Source: Dictyostelium discoideum
Taxonomy: Eukaryota
NCBI GenBank assembly: GCA_000004695.1
Contig: CM000151.3
Coordinates: forward strand, 7,072,001 to 7,136,000
DNA: 64,000 nucleotides
Direction: 5' to 3'
A program made the position numbers and the translations under genes. Shown here in pieces: positions 1 through 55,885 of the stretch (the stretch's first letter is position 1; each line of letters starts with the position of its first letter). Under the pieces are notes generated by a model. The model was not told the origin of the DNA. It did not search any database and saw only the letters and a program-made list of their open reading frames with translations.

Positions 1-163
1 AAAAATAAATAAAAATAAAAAAAAAAAAAATAATTAAAAATAAAAAATCTGGTAAAAAAAAAAAAACTATAAATATTTTTTTTTTTTTTTTTATATAAAG
101 CATTAAACAAATCGAAAAAAACTAAATTTTTAACTATAAAAAAAATTAAATTTAAAAAAAAAA

Positions 164-186
164 ATGTTAGCAAGTAAGTGTCTAAA

Positions 187-225
<39 letters not shown>

Positions 226-417
226 AATCTAACTTTATCCTTTTTTTAATTAGAATCATTAATCTTCTCTAAAAACTCATCAAAGGCAGACAAAATTTTT
301 TCAAATGATAAATTGACTGTTACTTCTTTTTCTTTAAATGCCACTTGCGAAAAAATTTCAGCTTCAACTACAACTTCTACCTCTATTTTTACAAGACCAA
401 ATTTCTTGAACTACTAA
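164..417 (+). CDS. micro-gene family copy A. Exon 1 at 164–173 (atgttagcaa|gtaagt), exon 2 at 254–417. Product is 57 aa: MLAKSLIFSKNSSKADKIFSNDKLTVTSFSLNATCEKISASTTTSTSIFTRPNFLNY.
   Basis: ATG plus 7 nt ends in phase 1, followed by a GTAAGT donor. An AT-rich intron ends in ...aattag, after which exon 2 stays open to TAA. The architecture and termini are shared with nine other copies. Confidence 0.55.
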
Positions 418-783
418 AAAAAATATATAAATAAACTAAATATATTGGCCGACTATAAATTTAAAATTCTAATTTTAATTGTTTGTTTGTTTTTTTTTTT
501 TAATAAATTTACCAATAATTTTATTAATTTAAATGATTTTATTAATTTAAATGATTTTCCTTTTAAAATTAAAAAAAAAACAATTTCATTTCTAATTAAT
601 TTTTTTTATTAATTTTTTTTTTTCAAACCCTCCATTACCTTTTACTAAAAAAAAAAAAAAAAAAAAATTATCTTATTTTGGTTTTAATATATGTACATGT
701 TTTTTTATTATTTATTTAAATATACAGTTTTTATATCAAGTATTTGTCGGCCTTGATATTTTATATTATTTTTTTATAAAATT

Positions 784-1031
784 TTAAAAATTTAAAAAAT
801 TTGGTCTTGTAAAAAAAGAAGTTGCGTTCTTAATTGAAACAATTTCATTTTTTGAAAAGTTATTTAAAGGTGTTTCACTATGGATACAGTTTAATGAAGA
901 TGAGTTTGTTTTGTTTGAAATTGAAATTAATGATTCTAAAATAATAATAAAAAAAAAATTAGAAATTATGTTTTGGAAAAAAGAAAAAAAATTGTTTTAA
1001 TATTCATTGCATTATACATACTTAATAACAT
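784..1031 (-). CDS. micro-gene family copy J. Exon 1 at 1031–1022 (atgttattaa|gtatgt), exon 2 at 935–784. Product: MLLKSLISISNKTNSSSLNCIHSETPLNNFSKNEIVSIKNATSFFTRPNFLNF.
   Basis: Reverse strand. Same exon and phase structure as the other copies, with the conserved exon-2 start aatcattaatttc and the C-terminus FFTRPNFLNF followed by a stop. Confidence 0.5.
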
Positions 1032-1555
1032 TTTATTATTTTTTTATATAGTTTTTTTATTTATTTCTAAATTTAGAATTTTTGTTTTATTTAAAATGAT
1101 TTTTTAATTAATAATGAATTATTTTTTTTAAACTATTTATATTTTTTTTTTTTTTTTAAGTAAAAGTATTCAAAAACCACTTTTATCTGTTAAATAATAA
1201 AATTTAAAAAATAATTGAACAGATGTTGTCGACATACACACACTCTCAATATAAAAATAGTGTTATCACAAACTTTAAAAGAAGTATGTGCGAATAGATT
1301 TTATTTAATATAGAATCATAAAACCAAAATGATATTTTTTATATATTGATTTTAAAAATAAAAAAAGCAATTTATTATTTTTAATAAATGAAGAAATAAA
1401 TTTAATTAATAAATAAATAATTTAAAAGGGTTGGTTTAAAAAATAAAATAATTATTTAATATGAACCAAAATTAAAAAATGAATTAATTTTGAATTTTTA
1501 TTGGAATAATTGAGTATACATATATTTTTAATTGAATATTAATAAAAGTGAAAAT

Positions 1556-1655
1556 NNNNNNNNNNNNNNNNNNNNNNNNNNNNNNNNNNNNNNNNNNNNN
1601 NNNNNNNNNNNNNNNNNNNNNNNNNNNNNNNNNNNNNNNNNNNNNNNNNNNNNNN
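1556..1655. other. assembly gap (100 N)
   Basis: Run of N characters; it lies inside the repetitive micro-gene cluster. Confidence 0.99.
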
Positions 1656-1789
1656 ATGTCATCATTTGTATTTTTAATTTATAGTGTCATTTTTAGATAT
1701 TCTTTTTTTTTTTTTTCAATTAAAACTGAAATTGTATGTTTATATATATCAGTGTTTTATTTGAAATAAAAAAATAATAATAATAAATG

Positions 1790-2257
1790 AAGTAAAAATA
1801 TTCAAACCACTTGTTGATGATATCCATTATTTAAGTAATCATTGTTGAAAACATATATTTGATATTGTTGTTGTCAAAAAAAAAATTAATATGATTTCAA
1901 CAAGATTAATAAAATAGTTTAAATTATATTATTATTCTTGTTGATATCATTATCCTTGTTTTTTTGTTTTTAAAAACAATTGTCTTTACTTGTATGTCAA
2001 CATAATATTTTTACAAAATTTAAACAATTAATAAAATTGTGTGTTTATTAAATAGTGGTGGTGGTAGGAAGTGGTTGGGGTGGGGTGGTGGGAAGTGGTT
2101 AAATTTTACTTAAAATAATTATTTCGATTTAAAAAATAAAATAGAATTTAAAAAAAAGTATAAATACTTTTTTTTAATTTTATTTTTTATATCAAACAAA
2201 CATTAAATTAAAAACAAAACAAAAACATTAATTAAAAACTATGAAACTATAAATAAA
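1790..2257 (+). promoter_or_regulatory. conserved promoter module of copy B: two TTGTTGATATC-type blocks (1808–1830, 1938–1950), a G-rich box (2055–2098), TATAAATA (2159–2166)
   Basis: The same elements occur in the same order upstream of copy E (5120–5583) and, mirrored, upstream of copy C (3190–3480). The G-rich box (GGTGGTGGTAGGAAGTGGTTGGGGTGGGGTGGTGGG) is highly unusual in DNA that is about 90% AT. Confidence 0.5.
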
Positions 2258-2497
2258 ATGTTATTCAGTATGTATTTTTAATAAAAAAAACAATGAAAAT
2301 ATCAATGAATATAATATTAATTTAATATTTTTTTTTTAAATTTAGAATCATTAATTTCATTATCAAATAAAAATACCACCTTAAATTCATCTTTAATTTC
2401 AAATCAAACAAACAATGATTGTAATGAATTTAAAAATGAAATTACAAACAAAAGTTCTACTGCATTCTTTACAAGACCAAACTTTGTAAACTATTAA
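2258..2497 (+). CDS. micro-gene family copy B. Exon 1 at 2258–2267 (atgttattca|gtatgt), exon 2 at 2346–2497. Product is 53 aa: MLFKSLISLSNKNTTLNSSLISNQTNNDCNEFKNEITNKSSTAFFTRPNFVNY.
   Basis: Canonical GTATGT donor, tttag acceptor, and an in-frame join. TATAAATA lies at about −99 and a G-rich box at about −200. Confidence 0.6.
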
Positions 2498-2584
2498 AAA
2501 AAAATATTATGATAAAAACAATTCCGATAAAAAACTTGTACAAACAATAAAATCTATTTATTTATTTATTTATTTATTTTAAAA

Positions 2585-2632
<48 letters not shown>

Positions 2633-2944
2633 CCTTGAGTGATTTTTAAAGTTGGTTTTAAATTAATTTTTTAAAACTATTGATTTTTTGATATTTTATC
2701 TTTATTAATATGTCTCCTTTGGATTTTATTATTTGCCCACTTTTTCATTTATAAAAGTAATTCGTTTTTTTATCAAATTTTACATAATTTTAAAATTTTT
2801 TTTTTTGTCAAACTTTTCCACAAATAAATAAAGAAAAAACAGAAAAATTATTTTTTAATTTTAAATAAATATATAAATATATTTTTTTTTTTAAATGTAC
2901 AATTTGTTTATCGGTATTAAAATTTTTTTTTTTTTTTTTTTTTT

Positions 2945-3189
2945 TTAATAGTTTATAAAGTTTGGTCTAGTAAAGAATGCAGTAGAACTTATGTTTGTAA
3001 TTTCATTTTTTAATTGATTACAATCATTGTTTGGTTGATAAGAAATTAAAGATGATTTTGAGGTGGTATTTTTATTTGATAATAAAATTAATGATTCTAA
3101 AAAAAAAAAAAAAAAATTCAAAATTAAAATCAACTTCATTATAATATATTTTTAATTATAATTTTTAAAATATACCTACTGAATAACAT
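2945..3189 (-). CDS. micro-gene family copy C. Exon 1 at 3189–3180 (atgttattca|gtaggt), exon 2 at 3096–2945. Product: MLFKSLILLSNKNTTSKSSLISYQPNNDCNQLKNEITNISSTAFFTRPNFINY.
   Basis: The ORF track (2945..3139, minus) covers exon 2. Exon 1 and its donor are found upstream on the minus strand. The promoter is a mirror image of the copy B promoter. Confidence 0.6.
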
Positions 3190-3480
3190 TTTTTATTTTT
3201 ATAGTTTTATATTTAGTTTTTTAAGATTTTATAATGTTAACTTTGTTCGATATAATAAATTAAAAAAAAAAAAAAGTATTTATACTGTTTTTTAAATCGA
3301 AATAATTAAGTAAAATTTAGATAAACACCCACAACCACCACCACTATAGCACATTTTTTTAAAAATTATGTAAAATGATTATGTTGATATACAAGTAAAC
3401 AGTAAAAAAAAAACAAGTATAATGATATCAACAAGAATAATAGTTTAATTTATTAACAACATTTTAAAAATATGTTTCCA
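3190..3480 (-). promoter_or_regulatory. conserved promoter module of copy C: TATAAATA at 3277–3286, a C-rich run on the plus strand (G-box in gene sense) at 3326–3345, ATGATATCAACAAG at 3422–3435
   Basis: It is the reverse complement of the copy B and copy E promoter architecture. Confidence 0.45.
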
Positions 3481-3705
3481 ACATCCATTTTTTTAAAAAA
3501 GGACTTAAAATTTTATTTAATTAATTAAAAAAATAATACAATAAAATTGTTTACAACAAAATTTAATTTTAATTTTTATGATTATTTAAAAAAGAAAAAA
3601 ATAAATGATAATTTGTAAAAAAAAAAATAAAAAATTAATTCTAATTATCTAGAATAATTTATTTTACAATAGTTTTTTTAATAAAAAAAGTTATTTGGTT
3701 GTTTT

Positions 3706-3745
<40 letters not shown>

Positions 3746-3948
3746 AAGCTAAATTGAATTATTTATTTAAAAACCTTTTTTGAACTAATTATAATAATAA
3801 AAATCAAAATAGCTAAACTATTTCACTCAAAAAAAAAAAAAAATGAAAATAATTTTTAAATTTTTTAAATAAATAAATAAATAGTTTTTTATTTGTACAA
3901 GTTTTTGTCGGCAATATAATTTTTTCAATAATTTTTTTAATAGTTTAC

Positions 3949-4085
3949 AAAGTTTGGTCTTGTAAAAAATGCAGTAGAACTTTTACTTGCAATTTCATTT
4001 TTGAATTCAATGCAATTATTATTTAATTGATTTGAAATTAATGATTTTGAGGTGGTGTTGTTATTTGATAATGAAATTAATGATT
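3949..4085 (-). CDS. micro-gene family copy D (partial). Exon 2 at 4085–3949 encodes ...SLISLSNNNTTSKSLISNQLNNNCIEFKNEIASKSSTAFFTRPNFVNY. Exon 1 is lost in the N gap.
   Basis: The exon-2 acceptor (ttag|aatcattaatttc) and the conserved C-terminus are present. Upstream sequence is the gap at 4130–4219. Confidence 0.45.
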
Positions 4086-4129
4086 CTAATAAATAAAAAA
4101 AAAAAAAAAAATAAGTATANNNNNNNNNN

Positions 4130-4219
4130 NNNNNNNNNNNNNNNNNNNNNNNNNNNNNNNNNNNNNNNNNNNNNNNNNNNNNNNNNNNNNNNNNNNNNNN
4201 NNNNNNNNNNNNNNNNNNN
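4130..4219. other. assembly gap (90 N)
   Basis: Run of N. The predicted exon 1 and promoter of micro-gene copy D would fall inside this gap. Confidence 0.99.
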
Positions 4220-5119
4220 ATAAATCATTTTATTTCATATTTATGTTTAAAATATGTACATGAAATCACAATAAACAAAACAACACCTATGTTTAATGAT
4301 TGTTTAAAAATTGTTGATTTAAGAAATGATTTGTATTGATTCTAATAAATTAAAATTTTAACCACAAAATAAAATCCTACCACAATTTATTCTTCCATTC
4401 CTTCTACTATACCCTAACCTATTTAATTATATATTCTAGAATTTGAATTTATTGTAAAATAGTGTTTATACTCCACCAACAAAAAGGATTTAAAAACTAT
4501 TTTAAAAATCATAAAGCTTTAAAACAAAATGTTTGAAATTATTATTTTAAAAGGTTTGGAAAAAAAAGAAAAGAAAAGAAAAAAGAAAATGATATTATTT
4601 ATTAAAAAGAAAAAAACAAAAAAACAAAAAAAGAAACAAACTAAATCAAAATAAACCAATTTAGAATATAATTAATTTCTTGTTTTTCTTTTTTTTTTCC
4701 AAACTTTTAAATTTAGAAAATAATTGATTTCTTGTTTTTCTTTTTTTTTTTAGAATCGCTGGTGTATTTATTTTTTTAATTATTTTATTTTTTGATTTTG
4801 TTTTAATTTATTTCTCTTTAATTTTACTTTTTTTTCGAGTTGCTGATAGCTATGCTATTTATTTTTATTTTATTTTACTTTTACCATTTCTCTTTTATTT
4901 TGTTCTTTTTTTTTTTTAATGAATTTTTTTTTTTTCATTGTTTTAAAAACTTTTAAAAATGAAAAAAAGTATAGGAAAAATGAGAATCATAAAAAACAGG
5001 ATGATGAATAAGTTTTGATCACTTATATTTTTTAAAATATAGTGCATTTTTACATGACATATTATTATATTTTTTAAATTTGAATTGAAAAATTATATAA
5101 ATGAAGAAAAAAAATGAAA

Positions 5120-5583
5120 ATTAATTAATGATGATATCAATTTTAAAACAATGATTGTTGAAAACATACAATATTTATGATTTTTATATGGTAGTTGAAG
5201 AAAATTATTGATTAAAAAAATTATTATCTATTAATAAAAAGGTTTTAAATTATATTATTATTCTTGTTGATATCATTTTGCTTGGCTTAATTTTATATTA
5301 ACATTTAACTTTACTTGTATGTCAACATAATATTTTTACAAATTTTAATTTATTTAATTTATTAAATAATTGTGTGTTTATTAAGTAGTGGTGGAGGGGG
5401 GTGGGTGGTTGTGAGTGTGTGATTAAATTAATTATAACTAAAAATTATTTCGATTTTAAAATTAAAAAAAAAAACAGTATAAATACTTTTTTTAATTTTA
5501 ATTTTTTATATCAAACAAAAATCATTAATTAAAAACTAAAGTTAAATAAATTAAAAACTATAAAAAAAAAATATATTTATAAA
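5120..5583 (+). promoter_or_regulatory. conserved promoter module of copy E: TTGTTGATATCAT at 5275–5287, G-rich box at 5387–5424, TATAAATA at 5479–5486
   Basis: It aligns with 1790–2257. The G-box variant is GTGGTGGAGGGGGGGTGGGTGGTTGTGAGTGTGTG. Confidence 0.5.
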
Positions 5584-5839
5584 ATGTTATTCAGTATGTA
5601 TTTTTTTTTTTATTTTTTTATTAGAATTATTTTTTAAAAATATCAATGAATTTAATATTAATTTAATATTTTTTTTTTTAAATTTAGAATCATTAATTTC
5701 ATTATCAAATAAAAATACCACCTTAAATTCATCTTTAATTTCAAATCAAACAAACAATGATTGTAATGAATTTAAAAATGAAATTACAAACAAAAGTTCT
5801 ACTGCATTCTTTACAAGACCAAACTTTGTAAACTATTAA
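5584..5839 (+). CDS. micro-gene family copy E. Exon 1 at 5584–5593, exon 2 at 5688–5839. The coding sequence is identical to copy B.
   Basis: Exon 2 matches B over all 152 nt. About 460 bp of upstream sequence is also highly similar to B (5120–5583 versus 1790–2257), which points to a recent duplication about 3.34 kb away. Confidence 0.6.
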
Positions 5840-6493
5840 AAAAAAAAATAATATGATATAAACAATGCCGATAAAAAACTTGTATATTTAATAAAAAAAA
5901 TTAATTATTTATTTATTTATTTATTTAAAAATAAAACCAAATTTTTTATTTTTTTATTTTTTTTTTTTTATTTTTTTTTTTATTTTTTTGAACATTTTCT
6001 ATCCTGACCCTGCAAATATAGCACCAAAAAAAAAAATTTAATTCAAAAAAAATAAATTTAAATAAAATTAAATGTTTTTTGAACTTCGTTTTTTTTTTTA
6101 TTTTATATAAATTTTTTTTTTTTTTGGGTACTTTTGTTCACTTTTTTCTTTTTATTTTTATACTTAAAATCTTTCAAAAAAAAAAGAAAAAACAAAAATT
6201 GATCAAATAATGAACTTAATATATTTCTTACCAAAAAATAAATAATAATAATAATAATAACGATAAAAATAATACTCAGTTCTTATTTTACATATGTAAC
6301 CTTTTTATTTTTTTAGATAATTTGTCATAATTATTATTTTTATTATTATTATTTAAAGTTTAAAAAAAAAAAAAGAAAAAAAAAAAAAATTTTAGTTTTT
6401 TTAATTAAGTTTTGTTTATTAATTTTAATTTATTTTACAAGTAAAGTTCGGCCATGTAAATTTATATATATATATAAAGTTTTTCGTTTTTTT

Positions 6494-6736
6494 TTAATAA
6501 TTTACAAAATTTGGTCTTGTGAAAAAGGCAGTTGGACTCTTCATTGTAATAGAATTATTTGTAGTACTAATTGAATTTATATTATTAGATTCAATTGAAC
6601 TTGATAATGATGATGAATTTTTGTTTGATAATGAAAGTAAAGATTCTATTTAAAAAAAAAAAAGTAAATTAATTAATACAATGACTTTAAAAATTTTTTT
6701 TTTTTTTTTTTTTTTTTTCAACTTACTGAATAACAT
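6494..6736 (-). CDS. micro-gene family copy F. Exon 1 at 6736–6727 (atgttattca|gtaagt), exon 2 at 6645–6494. Product: MLFKSLLSLSNKNSSSLSSSIESNNINSISTTNNSITMKSPTAFFTRPNFVNY.
   Basis: Reverse strand, same architecture. The promoter has TATAAATA at about −100, a G-run, and the GATGTTGTCGACATACA element. Confidence 0.55.
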
Positions 6737-6925
6737 TTTAAATTATAGTATATTAATATAGTTTTTATATTTGTTTTTTTATTTATTTAATTAATAAAAT
6801 TTTTTTTTAATGATTAAAATAATTTTTTTTTTTTTTATTTATACTTTTTTTTTTATTTTTAGTTTAAACATTTAATATAACCCCCAAAAAACCACTTAAT
6901 AACACTAATAACAAATTTGTAAAAT

Positions 6926-6946
6926 AGATGTTGTCGACATACATGT
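6926..6946. promoter_or_regulatory. conserved element GATGTTGTCGACATACA(T/C), followed by a CA run, about 190 bp upstream of minus-strand copy F. An identical element lies at 1218–1240, about 190 bp upstream of copy J.
   Basis: Two copies of an exact 17-mer containing a GTCGAC core, each flanked by (CA)n or ACACAC. Both sit at the same distance from the ATG of a minus-strand micro-gene. Confidence 0.4.
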
Positions 6947-7601
6947 GTTTTAAAAATTAAAAGGTTTTTTTGATAAACACACACACATTAAAAGAAGAGA
7001 TTTTATTATTTTAATTAAAAGATAATTTTAAAAAATGTAGATATGGTATCAACATCATTTTCTTTTTGACAAAAATAAAAATAATTATTTTAAATTTTAA
7101 TTTTTAATGATTATATAATTATTTACCCGCTCATTGATCACTATTTTTTTCCAAATAATTGTTATCATCATTTTTAAAATCAATTTTCTTCTTTTATAAG
7201 TTTTTTATTTTATTTTTATAATAATTTTAATTTTCTTAAGGAGTATTAATATGGATATAATAACAATATAATTGATTTTTAAAGTAAATCAAGTAAAATA
7301 AAAATAACAAAATTTCTTCATTTACTTTATTTATTTTAAAAATAAAAAGGTTTTTTATTTAATTTTAAAAAATTATAACATCATCCTTTTTTAAAATAAA
7401 AGAAGATAAAAATGATGAAATTATTTTATTATTTTTTACTTAATGATGTATTATCTTAGGGGACATCAAATTGAGAAAAAAAAAAAAAAATTATTTAAAT
7501 TAAAAATTTTATTCTTTTTTTTTTTTTTTTTTTTTTCTTTCCTTAAATTTATATAAAAACTTAAAAACTAGAACTTCTAAAAATAAATAAAAGAAATTAA
7601 A

Positions 7602-7843
7602 ATGCTATTTGGTATGTTAAAATTAATTTTATATAATTGGTTGATATTTATTTATTAATATTTTAAATTTTAGAATCAATTAAATTAAACATAAAAATAA
7701 ATAATTCTTTAAATGAATGTTCAAATTTATTAATTAGTGAAAATAATAAACATTCATTATATATTAATTCATTAAATACAATTACAACTAGAAATCAAAC
7801 TAGTAGCTTTTTTTTTTCTAGACCAAATTTCCAATGTTTTTAA
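7602..7843 (+). CDS. micro-gene family copy G (divergent). Exon 1 at 7602–7611 (atgctatttg|gtatgt), exon 2 at 7674–7843. Product is 60 aa: MLFESIKLNIKINNSLNECSNLLISENNKHSLYINSLNTITTRNQTSSFFFSRPNFQCF.
   Basis: Same exon and phase structure. The C-terminal motif is the variant FFFSRPNFQCF. Confidence 0.5.
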
Positions 7844-8309
7844 AAATAGATAACTAATTGTTAATTTACATTAAGAATAATTGTTCGAATAACTCAATAT
7901 TTAATTATTATTATGAATTAAATCATTTTTAATTTTAGAAAAAATAATAATTTATAAAAAAAATAGTAAAAATAAAAAATAAATTATTATTATTAAATTT
8001 CCAAAATCATACTTCATTTTTTTGATAATAACAATAATAATTATTTTGACAAAAAAAAAAAAAAAAAAATTGATAATTATTTCTTTTTGATAAACAAAAA
8101 TTAAAGTTGATATCAATAAATTTATTAGCCGGACAATTATTCAATATATTTTAAAAAATCAAATATCTAAAATATAAATCTTGATTTTAATAAATGTTGA
8201 TATCATACATATTATTTCTGCTTCTCATATAAATTTAAAAATAGCAACATATTCAATTTACAAATATATTTTATTTTTCAATCTATAGATTTATCAATTT
8301 TTTATTTTT

Positions 8310-8349
<40 letters not shown>

Positions 8350-8606
8350 ACCCATAGTAAAGAAGGGGTCAATTTTTAATTATCAAGTTATACGATTATT
8401 TCTATTTTAATTTTTATTTTATTTTTATTTTTATTTATTATTTTACTTTAATCAAAAAAAAAAAAAAAAAAAAAGTAAATATAAATAGTATTTTTTTTTT
8501 TTAAAAAAATAAATACTTAAAAATAAATCACAAATCAAAACATTAATTAATATAAATTATTAAAAAAAAAAAAAGAAAAATATTAAAAAAATAAATATAT
8601 TTTAAA

Positions 8607-8847
8607 ATGTTATTCAGTATGTATTTTAAATTAATTTTATTTCATTGTAAATTATAAATAATAAATATTAATTATTTTTATTTTTTTTTTTAAAATAGAA
8701 TCATTAATTTCATTATCAAACAATGTTTCAAAAGTTTCAACATTAATTTCAGTTGAAAACAATGAAAATTCTATAAATACTACAACAAATACTATAACAT
8801 TAAGAAGCACAGTCTTCTTTACAAGACCAAATTTTATTAATTATTAA
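8607..8847 (+). CDS. micro-gene family copy H. Exon 1 at 8607–8616, exon 2 at 8699–8847. Product: MLFKSLISLSNNVSKVSTLISVENNENSINTTTNTITLRSTVFFTRPNFINY.
   Basis: Exon 1 is atgttattca|gtatgt, the acceptor is aaaatag, and the conserved termini are present. Confidence 0.55.
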
Positions 8848-9016
8848 TTAAAAAAATAATTTATATATAAAAACAAAACATGGCCGAAATTTACATGTTT
8901 TAAAAAAAGTTAACGAAATAAAATCCTTTTGATTATAAAAAAAAAAATAAAAAAAAAAATTATATGTTTTCTTTGTATTTTTATTTTTTATTTTTTATTT
9001 TATTATTTTATTATTT

Positions 9017-28435: not shown

Positions 28436-28472
<37 letters not shown>

Positions 28473-28520
28473 TTAAAAAATTTGGTCTTGTAAAAGTGCA
28501 ACTCTTTAAACTTATACAAT
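27560..28520. repeat. tandem segmental duplication, two units of about 470 bp (27560–28000 and 28040–28520)
   Basis: Both units carry ...cagtattcaact(t/a)gg(a/g)atgtggaaaccaggaa(c/t)atttggtgtttggggtga(a/g)atgt...gaagactgggca...tttttctttgataatgatggtgataa... Both also carry ...caattcgagaggat(a/g)tttttt...aaaagtttaaaaa(t)tttggtc(c/t)tg. Unit 1 has an open frame (…MWKPGTFGVWGEMYSVILKKEDWAAHHHLRNVYFFFDNDGDKY). Unit 2 has an internal deletion and stops. Confidence 0.7.
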
Positions 28521-28695
28521 TAATTGTTTTGTTGGGAATTTCATTATTGTTTGAATTTATTTTTGATCTTTCCATAGTAATTTTAAGTGAAAAAATAAAC
28601 GATTCTATTATTTATTATTTTAAATATAAATATTAGTTTTTTTATTTTTTTTATTTAATTCTATTCTCTAATATATAAAACTTACTAAATATCAT
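28465..28695 (-). CDS. micro-gene family copy I (dispersed copy). Exon 1 at 28695–28686 (atgatattta|gtaagt), exon 2 at 28604–28465. Product: MIFKSFIFSLKITMERSKINSNNNEIPNKTINCISLKSCTFTRPNFLNF.
   Basis: Same architecture about 20 kb from the main cluster. It is embedded in a ~470-bp tandem duplication whose first unit at 27940–28000 carries only a truncated relic. Confidence 0.45.
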
Positions 28696-44544: not shown

Positions 44545-45037
44545 TTAAGAAATGATTAAAGGGATTGAAATTGAAATTGGTTTTCTACTAATTGAGTCTT
44601 TGTATTTAAGCTCCAACTCTGCTTGTGTGCTTGAAAGAGGAGTGGATGTTGGCTCATAGTATATATAGAAAAGTTGGTGTTCTTGAGGACTTAATGGAAT
44701 TGTACCTGGTTTACTAGTTTCACATATATTTTGGTCTCCTCTAAGATATGGAATTTTGAAACTTCCACAATCTCCTTTAATCTGTAATTCTAAATCTACC
44801 AAATCTAATCCATTATTTGTAATTGTAATATTTGCTTTATTATTATTCTATTTTATAGAAAAAAAAAAAAAAAATTAATATTAAAAAAAAAGAAAAAAAA
44901 AAAACAAAAAAAAAAAAAAAAAAAGATAATAATTATTTTTTTTTTTATTTATTTTTTTTTATTTTATTTATTTTTTATTTACATACTTGGCTGAAATTTA
45001 ATTTGGTTGGTTCAGCTTGAATTAAAGAATTTTCCAT
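44545..45037 (-). CDS. small hypothetical protein, 117 aa. Exon 1 at 45037–44987 (MENSLIQAEPTKLNFSQ|GTATGT), exon 2 at 44847–44545. A weak resemblance to an MSP/PapD-like beta-sandwich is noted.
   Basis: The ORF-track exon extends upstream in frame to a tatag acceptor. The 17-codon first exon ends at a GTATGT donor, so the phase is 0 and the total is 354 nt. A CACACCCACACCC element lies immediately 5' of the ATG on the gene strand. Confidence 0.5.
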
Positions 45038-45484
45038 TTTGTTTTGATAATTATTAGTAATTGAGGGTGTGGGTGTGTTAAAAAATAAAAAAATAATGAG
45101 GAAAAAGTGTTTATATAAAAATCAATTTAAAAAAAATAAAAATAAAAACAAAAACAAAAATAAAAAAAAAAATAAAAAAAAAAAAATAAAAAATAAAAAA
45201 AAAAAATAAAATTAAAATAAAATTTGTTTTTTATTAATTTTAAAAAAAAAAAAATTATAAAAATGGATTTTGAAATTTACTGTCAATTTATTTTCAAATT
45301 GAGCCATGAATAGAAAAAAAAAAAAAAAAAAAAAAAAATAAAAAAAAAAAAAATAAAAAAAAATTTTAGAAAATTGGTTTTTTTAGTAAACTTGAATATT
45401 TTTTTTTTTTTCTTATGAGTTTTTAAGATAATGTAAAAAAAAAAAAAAAGAAATTATTATTCAAGTTTATTAAAAAATGAATTT

Positions 45485-55459: not shown

Positions 55460-55885
55460 TTTAAAATTTTAATAGTTTCTTGTTTAAAAATTAGAGTTTG
55501 ATTTAATATTTTTTTTTTCTAATTTGGTTACAATTTATAGTTTTTTTTTTTTCTAAAAAAAAGAATAAAAAAAACAAATAATTTTTTAATTTTATTTTTA
55601 AAATCATACTTTTTGTTTTTTCATTTCTATTTTTTTTATATCAAAAAACTTAAACTCCCCCCCCCCCATTATATTTTTCTATTTGACTTGTTATATTATT
55701 CATATGACTTGTTATAGTAATTATTATTATAAATGGGGCCTTTGGATTTTGAATTATCAAGAATTCTTAAAATAAAAAAGTCTTTAAAAAAAAAAAATAA
55801 AAAAAAAATTATTCATAAAATTAAAAAACTATAAAAACAAAAAATCAATTTTTAAAATATTAATTATAAATCAAAAAATAAAAAC

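Follow-up and report, generated by a model that had tools for sequence, protein, structure and literature searches.

A conserved series of upstream boxes with a G/T-rich island: the probable developmental promoter of a Dictyostelium discoideum micro-gene family

The window considered here, a stretch of 64,000 nucleotides of Dictyostelium discoideum DNA that was analysed as a whole, contains a family of two-exon micro-genes of which three copies, B, C and E, share a recognisable upstream region.

2258..2497, + strand: micro-gene B (DDB_G0276613), 53 aa; exon 1 2258-2267, intron 2268-2345, exon 2 2346-2497
2945..3189, - strand: micro-gene C, 53 aa, absent from the protein collection
5584..5839, + strand: micro-gene E (DDB_G0276707); exon 1 5584-5593, exon 2 5688-5839

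The proteins of B and E are identical, and the second exons of the two genes are 99% identical. Across the family the first-exon ORF is 10 nt long and the products are of 49-59 aa, lack any richness in Gly or Cys and run between the common ends MLFKSLIS…FFTRPNFVNY. A Pfam scan of the micro-gene products gave zero matches, a profile search of 1.84 billion proteins returned no more than 17 clusters, every one of them of the MLFKSLIS…FFTRPNF type, and a literature search on the other family gene identifiers yielded no papers. The family may be lineage-restricted and peptide-coding. Kinship with the sigN/hssA proteins was considered and rejected, since the profile search recovered the family itself only; that type is also defined by a 13-nt first-exon ORF and by Ser/Gly/Cys-rich proteins of 87-89 aa, and sigN is used below as a promoter analogy only.

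The same ordered boxes are found upstream of B and E and, mirrored, upstream of C. Their positions, listed below from distal to proximal, come from alignment and motif scanning of the three upstream regions.

1819..1824, + strand: distal GATATC box (palindromic GATA) of promoter B, about -439
5133-5138, + strand: distal GATATC box of promoter E, counterpart of the B box
1837..1854, + strand: far-upstream box AATCATTGTTGAAAACAT of promoter B, cross-species identity 0.6-0.68
5147-5167: far-upstream box of promoter E, reading AACAATGATTGTTGAAAACAT as in the D. citrinum and D. firmibasis copies
1921..1953, + strand: block 1 of B, TAAATTATATTATTATTCTTGTTGATATCATTA, with the palindromic GATA core TGATATCA, a candidate GtaC site
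3419..3451, - strand: block 1 of C, with GATATC at 3424-3429
5247..5279, + strand: block 1 of E, with GATATC at 5269-5274, a candidate GtaC site
1985..2017, + strand: block 2 of B, TTTACTTGTATGTCAACATAATATTTTTACAAA, 97% identical between B and E, cross-species identity 0.8-0.96
3367..3399, - strand: block 2 of C
5310..5342, + strand: block 2 of E
2037..2098, + strand: G/T-rich island of B, TGTGTGT, a 9-nt spacer and TAGTGGTGGTGGTAGGAAGTGGTTGGGGTGGGGTGGTGGGAAGTGG (G-rich part 2055-2098)
3325..3346, - strand: G/T island of C, short, TAGTGGTGGTGGTTGTGGGTGT in gene sense
5370..5424, + strand: G/T island of E, TGTGTGT, a 9-nt spacer and TAGTGGTGGAGGGGGGTGGGTGGTTGTGAGTGTGTG (G-rich part 5387-5424)
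2117..2130, + strand: AATTATTTCGATTT box of B, cross-species identity 0.7, 100% identical between B and E
3294..3307, - strand: AATTATTTCGATTT box of C
5443..5456, + strand: AATTATTTCGATTT box of E
2157..2167, + strand: TATA box AGTATAAATAC of B, with an oligo-dT run after it, cross-species identity 0.83-0.91
3276-3286, - strand: TATA box of C
5476-5486, + strand: TATA box of E
2187..2200, + strand: initiator-like TTATATCAAACAAA of B, about 25-30 nt 3' of the TATA box, cross-species identity about 0.7
3242-3255, - strand: initiator-like box of C
5506-5519, + strand: initiator-like box of E

The initial annotation of this DNA had proposed three ordered elements, and alignment together with motif scanning places all three where it had put them upstream of B, E and the mirrored C. 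The first, TAAATTATATTATTATTCTTGTTGATATCATT, corresponds to block 1 in each copy, although the sequence quoted for it is 31 nt long and not the 35 nt claimed; the quoted G islands are exact for B and C but give E one G too many, the run there being of six. The third element, GTATAAATAC, lies at 2158-2167 in B, 5477-5486 in E and 3276-3285 on the minus strand in C. To these can be added a second GATATC box at about -450, which is kept as ATGATGATATCAAT in the D. citrinum copies, a near-palindrome AACAATGATTGTT at about -435, the AATTATTTCGATTT box, the initiator-like TTATATCAAACAAA box and, above all, block 2 (TTTACTTGTATGTCAACAT…TTTTACAAA), which was overlooked although it is the most conserved promoter box of all and which reads TGTATGTCGACAACAT in the A2 and F paralogues. 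The far-upstream AACAATGATTGTTGAAAACAT holds the 13-nt palindrome AACAAT-G-ATTGTT. Judged by the usual Dictyostelium arrangement of TATA box, oligo-dT run and start site, transcription would begin near -72; an earlier survey of G-quadruplexes (Saad 2019, PMC6511855) likewise assigned the G-rich sequence to the promoter and not to the UTR.

That the region is a conserved, shared promoter, as had been suggested, is borne out by the contrast between boxes and spacers. Between B and E the boxes are 89-100% identical (97% in block 1), whereas the spacers, at 46-61%, have fallen to background, and in the cross-species alignment identity peaks at 0.8-0.96 in the boxes (0.79-0.86 for block 1) against 0.05-0.5 between them. 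Ten promoters, drawn from D. discoideum, D. citrinum and D. firmibasis, have this same architecture, as does a second D. discoideum strain, so that the boxes constitute a constrained cis-regulatory module and not just the trace of a recent duplication. In the A2, F and H subfamilies and their orthologues, a GATA(T/C)C box, a CAACAT…TTTACAAA box, a short G run and TATAAATA follow one another in this same order. As for chance, [TG]G[TG]G[TG]G[TG] is matched 16 times in positions 1-9000 of the window, always at 136-245 nt 5' of the ATG of a family gene and with its G strand in gene sense, where composition-matched shuffles give an expectation of 0.41, and all seven TTGATATCA sites in the 64 kb fall in family promoters (0.21 expected in 9 kb). 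Within the island the G density is 11-15 G per 20 nt, a level reached by none of 500 shuffles for each of the 10 B/C/E-type promoters. What is kept across promoters is the position of the island, its G/T composition and its strand, but not its sequence.

GtaC is the only transcription factor for which there is direct evidence on the B and E promoters. Both genes are in the list of 561 direct GtaC targets (Santhanam 2015, PMC4506546, Supplementary Data 2), and in ChIP-seq their late-aggregation binding scores are 5.37 (B) and 4.34 (E), against 0 at earlier stages and 0 at both genes for the mutant in which zinc-finger Cys residues are replaced by Ser. Late aggregation is the one stage at which the rank product drops below 0.005 (0.0011 for B, 0.0006 for E), and the differential-expression scores of the complemented strain against the knockout at that stage are +2.27 and +3.41, respectively, a difference that could be indirect, as the paper concedes, given that gtaC-null cells arrest early (PMC4506546). 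In the same study a GATA-like motif was found only under the peaks of wild-type GtaC. Because B and E are direct GtaC targets, the palindromic GATA box TGATATCA becomes the best-supported element of the promoter, and the GtaC evidence points to block 1 rather than to the G island. The resolution of ChIP is that of a whole promoter, and the sites within it were left unmapped in that work (PMC4506546); the boxes at -315 and -450 are conserved, enriched and confined to family promoters, and the conserved TGATATCA palindromes are proposed here as candidate points of GtaC contact. The in-vitro preference of GtaC has been reported as GATC rather than GATA.

The developmental induction predicted from the promoter is seen for B, the expression of which is not flat: it is classed as UP_Hr10_gradual on filters and, in suspension, as UP_Hr08_rapid after the replacement, at 6 h, of 30 nM pulses by 300 µM cAMP (Rosengarten 2015, RNA-seq). 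The gene is also listed in suspension as DOWN_Hr05_gradual, which sits awkwardly beside UP_Hr08_rapid, and E appears only in a DOWN list (column 13, DOWN_Hr06_gradual, a label read from the pattern of the columns). These counts use uniquely mapping reads only, which penalises B and E with their near-identical second exons.

With regard to the G/T island, the suggestion that it represents a GBF-type G box agrees with the published half-site consensus, (T/G)G(T/G)G(T/G)G(T/G) (Vicente 2008, PMC2257962, quoting Hjorth 1990). Half-sites were scored with a regular expression of the quoted consensus and not with a published matrix, literature searches for GBF half-site or CAE matrices having produced nothing usable. 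There are four matches in B, five in E and two in C, all on the sense strand and 136-220 nt upstream of the ATG, and 9 of the 10 aligned promoters have at least two; in the exception, D. citrinum copy 4925, the G island is present but the half-site in its strict form is not. A search of the accessible literature found no GBF binding data set for these promoters, and binding of GBF to the island is a prediction from the consensus match. The closest parallel is with the sigN clusters (Vicente 2008, PMC2257962), which are similarly composed of clustered inverted and tandem two-exon genes that have a very short first exon and encode tiny proteins, and in which the promoters of paralogues can be aligned with each other, conserved G-rich boxes fitting the consensus lie 100-250 nt upstream and induction takes place at around 8-12 h of development. 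Of these genes, sigN12, sigN103 and sigN107 have been documented as GBF-dependent, the micro-genes being candidates by promoter analogy. Unlike sigN, which encodes unrelated proteins and has fixed pairs of boxes, the micro-genes have one G/T tract of variable length. Other G-box and CA-rich-element promoters that invite comparison are those of the post-aggregative GBF-dependent genes cprB, cotC and lagC.

When these lines are brought together, the best explanation as a whole, and a probable one, is that the ~480 bp upstream of B, C and E act as a compact, selectively maintained developmental promoter in which a GtaC switch is combined with a GBF-type G box. The core would consist of the TATA box GTATAAATAC at about -100 from the ATG, the oligo-dT run and the initiator-like TATATCAAAC. 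Upstream of it would lie (i) one or two palindromic GATA boxes TGATATCA, at -315 and -450, (ii) the 33-nt box TTTACTTGTATGTCAACAT-N7-TTTTACAAA at -273, (iii) the G/T-rich island, C-free on the sense strand, from -200 to -160, and (iv) TTTCGATTT at -136. At late aggregation the cAMP-controlled GATA factor GtaC would occupy the promoter, most plausibly through the GATATC boxes, and switch the genes on, while the island, as a degenerate GBF-type G box, would add a post-aggregative, high-cAMP boost at 8-10 h.

The island is the part of this account on which other readings centre. It may be a genuine cis element whose reader is not GBF but, for instance, another zinc-finger protein, or one that excludes nucleosomes in extremely AT-rich DNA. 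This is unlikely, yet the retention of position, strand and composition without sequence would fit any low-specificity reader of G/T tracts, other subfamilies keep just a GGGG(G) run at the island position, and gene F is already induced at 3-6 h with cAMP pulses, ahead of the classical GBF targets; on the other hand, GBF is the only Dictyostelium factor that was found described in the literature consulted for such G/T boxes, and the 8-10 h induction of B, which follows high cAMP, is consistent with GBF. A somewhat more doubtful proposal is that the island functions as a DNA G-quadruplex, a structural promoter switch tuning transcription, in place of a protein-recognition sequence. The capacity of the G-runs to fold, raised in the initial annotation, had already been established: the oligonucleotides p12 (Chr2 7074056-7074075) and p14 (Chr2 7077389-7077409), taken from the promoters of DDB_G0276613 and DDB_G0276707, form G-quadruplexes in vitro, p12 antiparallel with a Tm of 36 °C and p14 parallel with a Tm of 52 °C, with CD, UV-melting, TDS/IDS and gel data for these and for their RNA versions (Saad 2019, PMC6511855). 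They correspond to window positions 2056-2075, inside the island of B, and 5389-5409, inside that of E, where the run of six G agrees with p14. The same survey found G-quadruplexes enriched in Dictyostelium promoters and reported ligand effects on five other genes, B and E not being among them. G4Hunter gives 2.08 for the island of B and 1.88 for that of E, the two highest peaks in the 64 kb, and three promoters of the second strain score 1.6-2.1. However, only 3 of the 10 aligned promoters reach at least 1.5, with C at 0.96 and the D. citrinum copies at 0.84-1.24; the window has no canonical (G3+N1-7)x4 (Quadparser) motif anywhere; and in the comparison of strains the best G-run block of B has decayed to GGGTTTGTGTG without loss of its G/T richness. 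The low melting temperature of p12 also speaks against a switch of this kind. This oligonucleotide takes in just the weaker 5' portion of the B island, the stronger GGTTGGGGTGGGGTGGTGGG (G4Hunter 2.08) not being the sequence used in the folding experiments. G-quadruplex propensity is not the conserved property of the island. Whereas p12 and p14 were treated as unrelated by Saad 2019 (PMC6511855), they are here seen to be paralogous copies of one promoter element, to which can be added a third copy, in C, and orthologous promoters that keep the island with mostly lower G4 scores.

A further, improbable and rather speculative reading takes the island as a fast-evolving tuning element, at once a degenerate transcription-factor box and a G-quadruplex of variable strength, that would act together with the deeply conserved box TGTATGTC(A/G)ACA…TTTTACAAA, to which an undescribed factor would bind. 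Slippage would alter the length and G-run layout of the island among paralogues, strains and species and would thereby give near-identical copies different levels and timing of expression. The least likely reading is that the shared elements are a residue of recent tandem or inverted duplication and the island a functionless, slippage-prone (GGT)n-like microsatellite. The exon 2 identity of B and E does point to ongoing duplication or gene conversion, TRF classifies the island of B as a degenerate (GTG)12 array, and island length is polymorphic between strains, E having gained (GGA)n. Against this, the spacers have decayed while the boxes hold, the boxes persist in D. citrinum and D. firmibasis, a C-free tract with 39-64% G is present in 10 of 10 promoters where the background is 5-12% G, and independent ChIP and expression evidence is that of active, regulated promoters.

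The finding holds but is for the most part known or ordinary, G-quadruplex folding and GtaC target status both having been published, and the initial interpretation is overall partly supported. Although the GtaC ChIP-seq and the G-quadruplex survey already touch the same DNA, the link between them had not been made. The more than 10 paralogous and orthologous copies amount to a natural promoter-bashing series in which spacers have been randomised and boxes preserved, and thus to a test bed for the use by GtaC of palindromic GATATC sites, for the GBF-type G box and the G-quadruplex as alternative readings of one sequence and for the factor that binds block 2; in other respects the promoter is an ordinary developmental one, and its gene family has been little characterised. 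The island, the absence of which from other strains would have counted against the initial interpretation, is found in the second D. discoideum strain and in the two sister species. For micro-gene D, the sequence past the upstream N gap aligned to the B/E promoter with no convincing match, and its promoter, judging by the second strain, probably lies in the gap.

The first 9 kb of the window (Dictyostelium discoideum AX4 chromosome 2, about 7,072,001-7,136,000, as placed by means of the published coordinates of two oligos) have a G+C content of 13-16% and hold a cluster of two-exon micro-genes which, with one further copy near 28.6 kb, number ten. In these genes a first-exon ORF of 10 nt (ATGTTATTCA) is followed by an intron of 70-100 nt, and the products are 49-59 amino acids long, starting with MLFKSLIS and ending with FFTRPNF(V/I/L)N(Y/F). 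The family, spanning 165-8850 and 28440-28695 and present also in D. citrinum (L001), D. firmibasis (L002) and a gap-free assembly of a second D. discoideum strain (L003), has invariant ends around a variable Asn/Ser/Thr-rich middle. No Pfam domain was found in it, and a search with its profile through 1.84 billion representatives returned only 17 clusters, every one of the same type. That the C-terminal decapeptide is conserved suggests either processing to a peptide or a role in docking. Three copies are central here, of which B and E encode an identical protein:

2258-2497, plus strand: micro-gene B, DDB_G0276613
5584-5839, plus strand: micro-gene E, DDB_G0276707
2945-3189, minus strand: micro-gene C, 83% identity to B/E

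The upstream regions of B and E were aligned with the reverse complement of C to check the ordered promoter elements that the initial annotation had listed, and every element was found at its coordinates. Its description of these elements is right, save that block 1, the box containing GATATC, measures 31 nt as typed and not 35 nt, and that the quoted G-rich island of E, which is present, carries one G in excess. The conserved core of block 1, TGATATCA, is a palindrome of two GATA half-sites. On chromosome 2 the GATATC boxes lie at 7,073,943 and 7,077,269. Family promoters account for each of the seven GATATC sites of the first 9 kb, and likewise for each of the seven TTGATATCA sites across the 64 kb. 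The same alignment contains further boxes that had not been annotated:

B 1985-2017, E 5310-5342, C 3367-3399: block 2, TTTACTTGTATGTCAACATAATATTTTTACAAA, between block 1 and the G island
B/C/E promoters: AATTATTTCGATTT box
about 25-30 nt downstream of the TATA box: initiator-like TTATATCAAACAAA
-450: second GATATC box
-435: palindromic AACAATGATTGTT

The annotation had predicted from these elements that the genes are developmentally induced, and in the per-time-point lists of differentially expressed genes of Rosengarten et al. 2015 (Additional file 7) the family is clearly not flat. B appears on filters in UP_Hr10_gradual, a column whose identity was deduced from the always-empty columns of the list, and in suspension in UP_Hr08_rapid, where Hr08 is the earliest sample following the change at 6 h from 30 nM cAMP pulses to 300 µM cAMP; it is additionally found in suspension DOWN_Hr05_gradual, which is not cleanly reconcilable with UP_Hr08_rapid. 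E occurs in one list only, a DOWN list, and the counting of uniquely mapping reads alone in that study puts both B and E at a disadvantage. F (DDB_G0276651), of another subfamily, has raised expression at 3-6 h under pulses. Overall, B has the profile of a late-aggregation or post-aggregation gene. The UP_Hr08_rapid list also holds the neighbouring tags DDB_G0276705, DDB_G0276697, DDB_G0276693 and DDB_G0276643, which hints that the chromosomal neighbourhood of B is co-regulated.

What, then, acts on these promoters? The best-evidenced regulator is GtaC. Both B and E are among its 561 putative direct targets (Santhanam et al. 2015, PMC4506546, Supplementary Data 2), in late aggregation only, with rank products of 0.0011 (B) and 0.0006 (E), ChIP binding scores of 5.37 and 4.34, and expression scores in the complemented strain relative to the gtaC-null of +2.27 and +3.41. 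Binding is absent in the zinc-finger Cys-to-Ser mutant, a GATA-like motif lies under wild-type GtaC peaks only, and the authors concluded that GtaC binding in late aggregation activates genes (PMC4506546). Within the promoters GtaC most plausibly acts at the GATATC box, an assignment that stays an inference, the ChIP score being given per promoter.

The shared elements could in principle be a non-functional residue of duplication, and B and E are indeed 99% identical over 183 nt of exon 2 and the beginning of the 3' flank (2328-2510 vs 5670-5852). Since their introns and promoter spacers are by comparison only 46-68% identical, this suggests that gene conversion was confined to the coding part. 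Between the two promoters the boxes are 89-100% identical, against 46-61% for the spacers, the background level for such composition. Comparison with the orthologous clusters of D. citrinum and D. firmibasis gave ten alignable B/C/E-type promoters from three species, in which block 2 is the most conserved box, its cross-species pairwise identity of 0.8-0.96 equalling that of the coding exon; the TATA box has 0.83-0.91, block 1 0.79-0.86 and the TTTCGATTT box about 0.7, and spacers and intron are down to 0.05-0.5. The A2, F and H subfamilies and their orthologues, although more distant, keep the same order: GATA(T/C)C box, CAACAT…TTTACAAA box, short G run, TATAAATA. Mere duplication is a very improbable account, and the B/C/E module, 480 bp long in E, is a genuine developmental promoter maintained by selection.

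A2 and F carry, in place of CAACAT…TTTACAAA, an element that includes a perfect 8-bp palindrome, TGTCGACA:

1222-1240 and 6927-6945, minus strand: TGTATGTCGACAACAT of the A2 and F paralogues, also in the L001 and L002 orthologues

A variant of block 2, it lies at about -200, directly flanked on one side by (TG)n or G runs, and suggests a dimeric factor.

The G island is poorly conserved position by position across species. All ten promoters nevertheless have the tract, which is 14-59 nt long, 39-64% G and devoid of C (one C in copy C), and in every case situated between block 2 and TTTCGATTT on the sense strand; it peaks at 11-15 G per 20 nt, against 8-12% G in the rest of the promoters, a peak matched by none of 500 shuffles in each promoter. 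Its absence from other strains had been named as grounds for refutation; in the second strain it persists in the B-, D- and E-like promoters with a run layout unlike that of AX4: the B island, a degenerate (GTG)n array according to TRF, changes from GGGGTGGGGTGGTGGG in AX4 to GGGGTGGGTTTGTGTG, and the E island has gained a (GGA)n stretch. The island evolves via slippage and substitution, with constraint on G/T composition and not on sequence. Copy D lacks exon 1 and promoter in AX4, both falling inside an assembly N gap (4120-4219); its counterpart in L003 (3944-4400) has a full promoter with blocks 1 and 2, island, TTTCGATTT and TATA. As the C-like copy of L003 is an exon-2 relic only, either the strains differ in cluster structure or AX4 is imperfectly assembled at this point.

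The proposals that GBF reads the island and that it may form G-quadruplexes (G4) were both reasonable. The GBF consensus, (T/G)G(T/G)G(T/G)G(T/G) (Vicente et al. 2008, PMC2257962, cited there from Hjorth et al. 1990), has half-site matches in window 1-9000 that number 16 against 0.41 expected, all 16 in gene sense and 136-245 nt 5' of the ATG of a family member. GbfA binds G-rich motifs of cprB and prespore genes and is needed for their induction by cAMP. A close precedent is offered by the sigN clusters, in which genes for small proteins stand in tandem or inverted, their promoters can be aligned and share conserved GBF-like boxes, and sigN12 is GBF-dependent (PMC2257962). The island conforms to the consensus and the timing appears to agree; GBF is a good candidate for the putative reader of the island, and that another factor reads it is unlikely. 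Somewhat less likely again is that the G4 structure is itself the functional entity. With a re-implemented G4Hunter the islands of B (2.08) and E (1.88) are the top two in the 64 kb, and the G4 part of the finding is already in print: Saad et al. 2019 (PMC6511855) described two G4 motifs, p12 (2056-2075) in the promoter of DDB_G0276613 and p14 (5389-5409) in that of DDB_G0276707, and demonstrated their folding in vitro via CD, melting and difference spectra, p12 being antiparallel and unimolecular (Tm 36 °C) and p14 parallel (Tm 52 °C). No canonical G3+ x4 motif occurs in the window, and only three of the ten aligned promoters score at least 1.5, with C at 0.96 and the D. citrinum copies at 0.84-1.24; G4 propensity is not the conserved property of the island. 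A composite model, with GtaC and a G-box acting together, is the account we consider moderately probable.

The strongest G4-prone segment, GGTTGGGGTGGGGTGGTGGG (2075-2094, 2.08), lies in the B island directly 3' of p12, which scores 1.05, and is apparently not the oligo assayed. The window's only other site with an absolute G4Hunter score of at least 1.5 is a C11 homopolymer at 55657-55667 (1.84, minus strand). A textbook G-box, GGGTGTGGGTGTG, is found at 45065-45077; read in the direction of the adjoining minus-strand gene it is a CA-rich element, and an apparent ATG follows about 30 nt downstream, near 45037.
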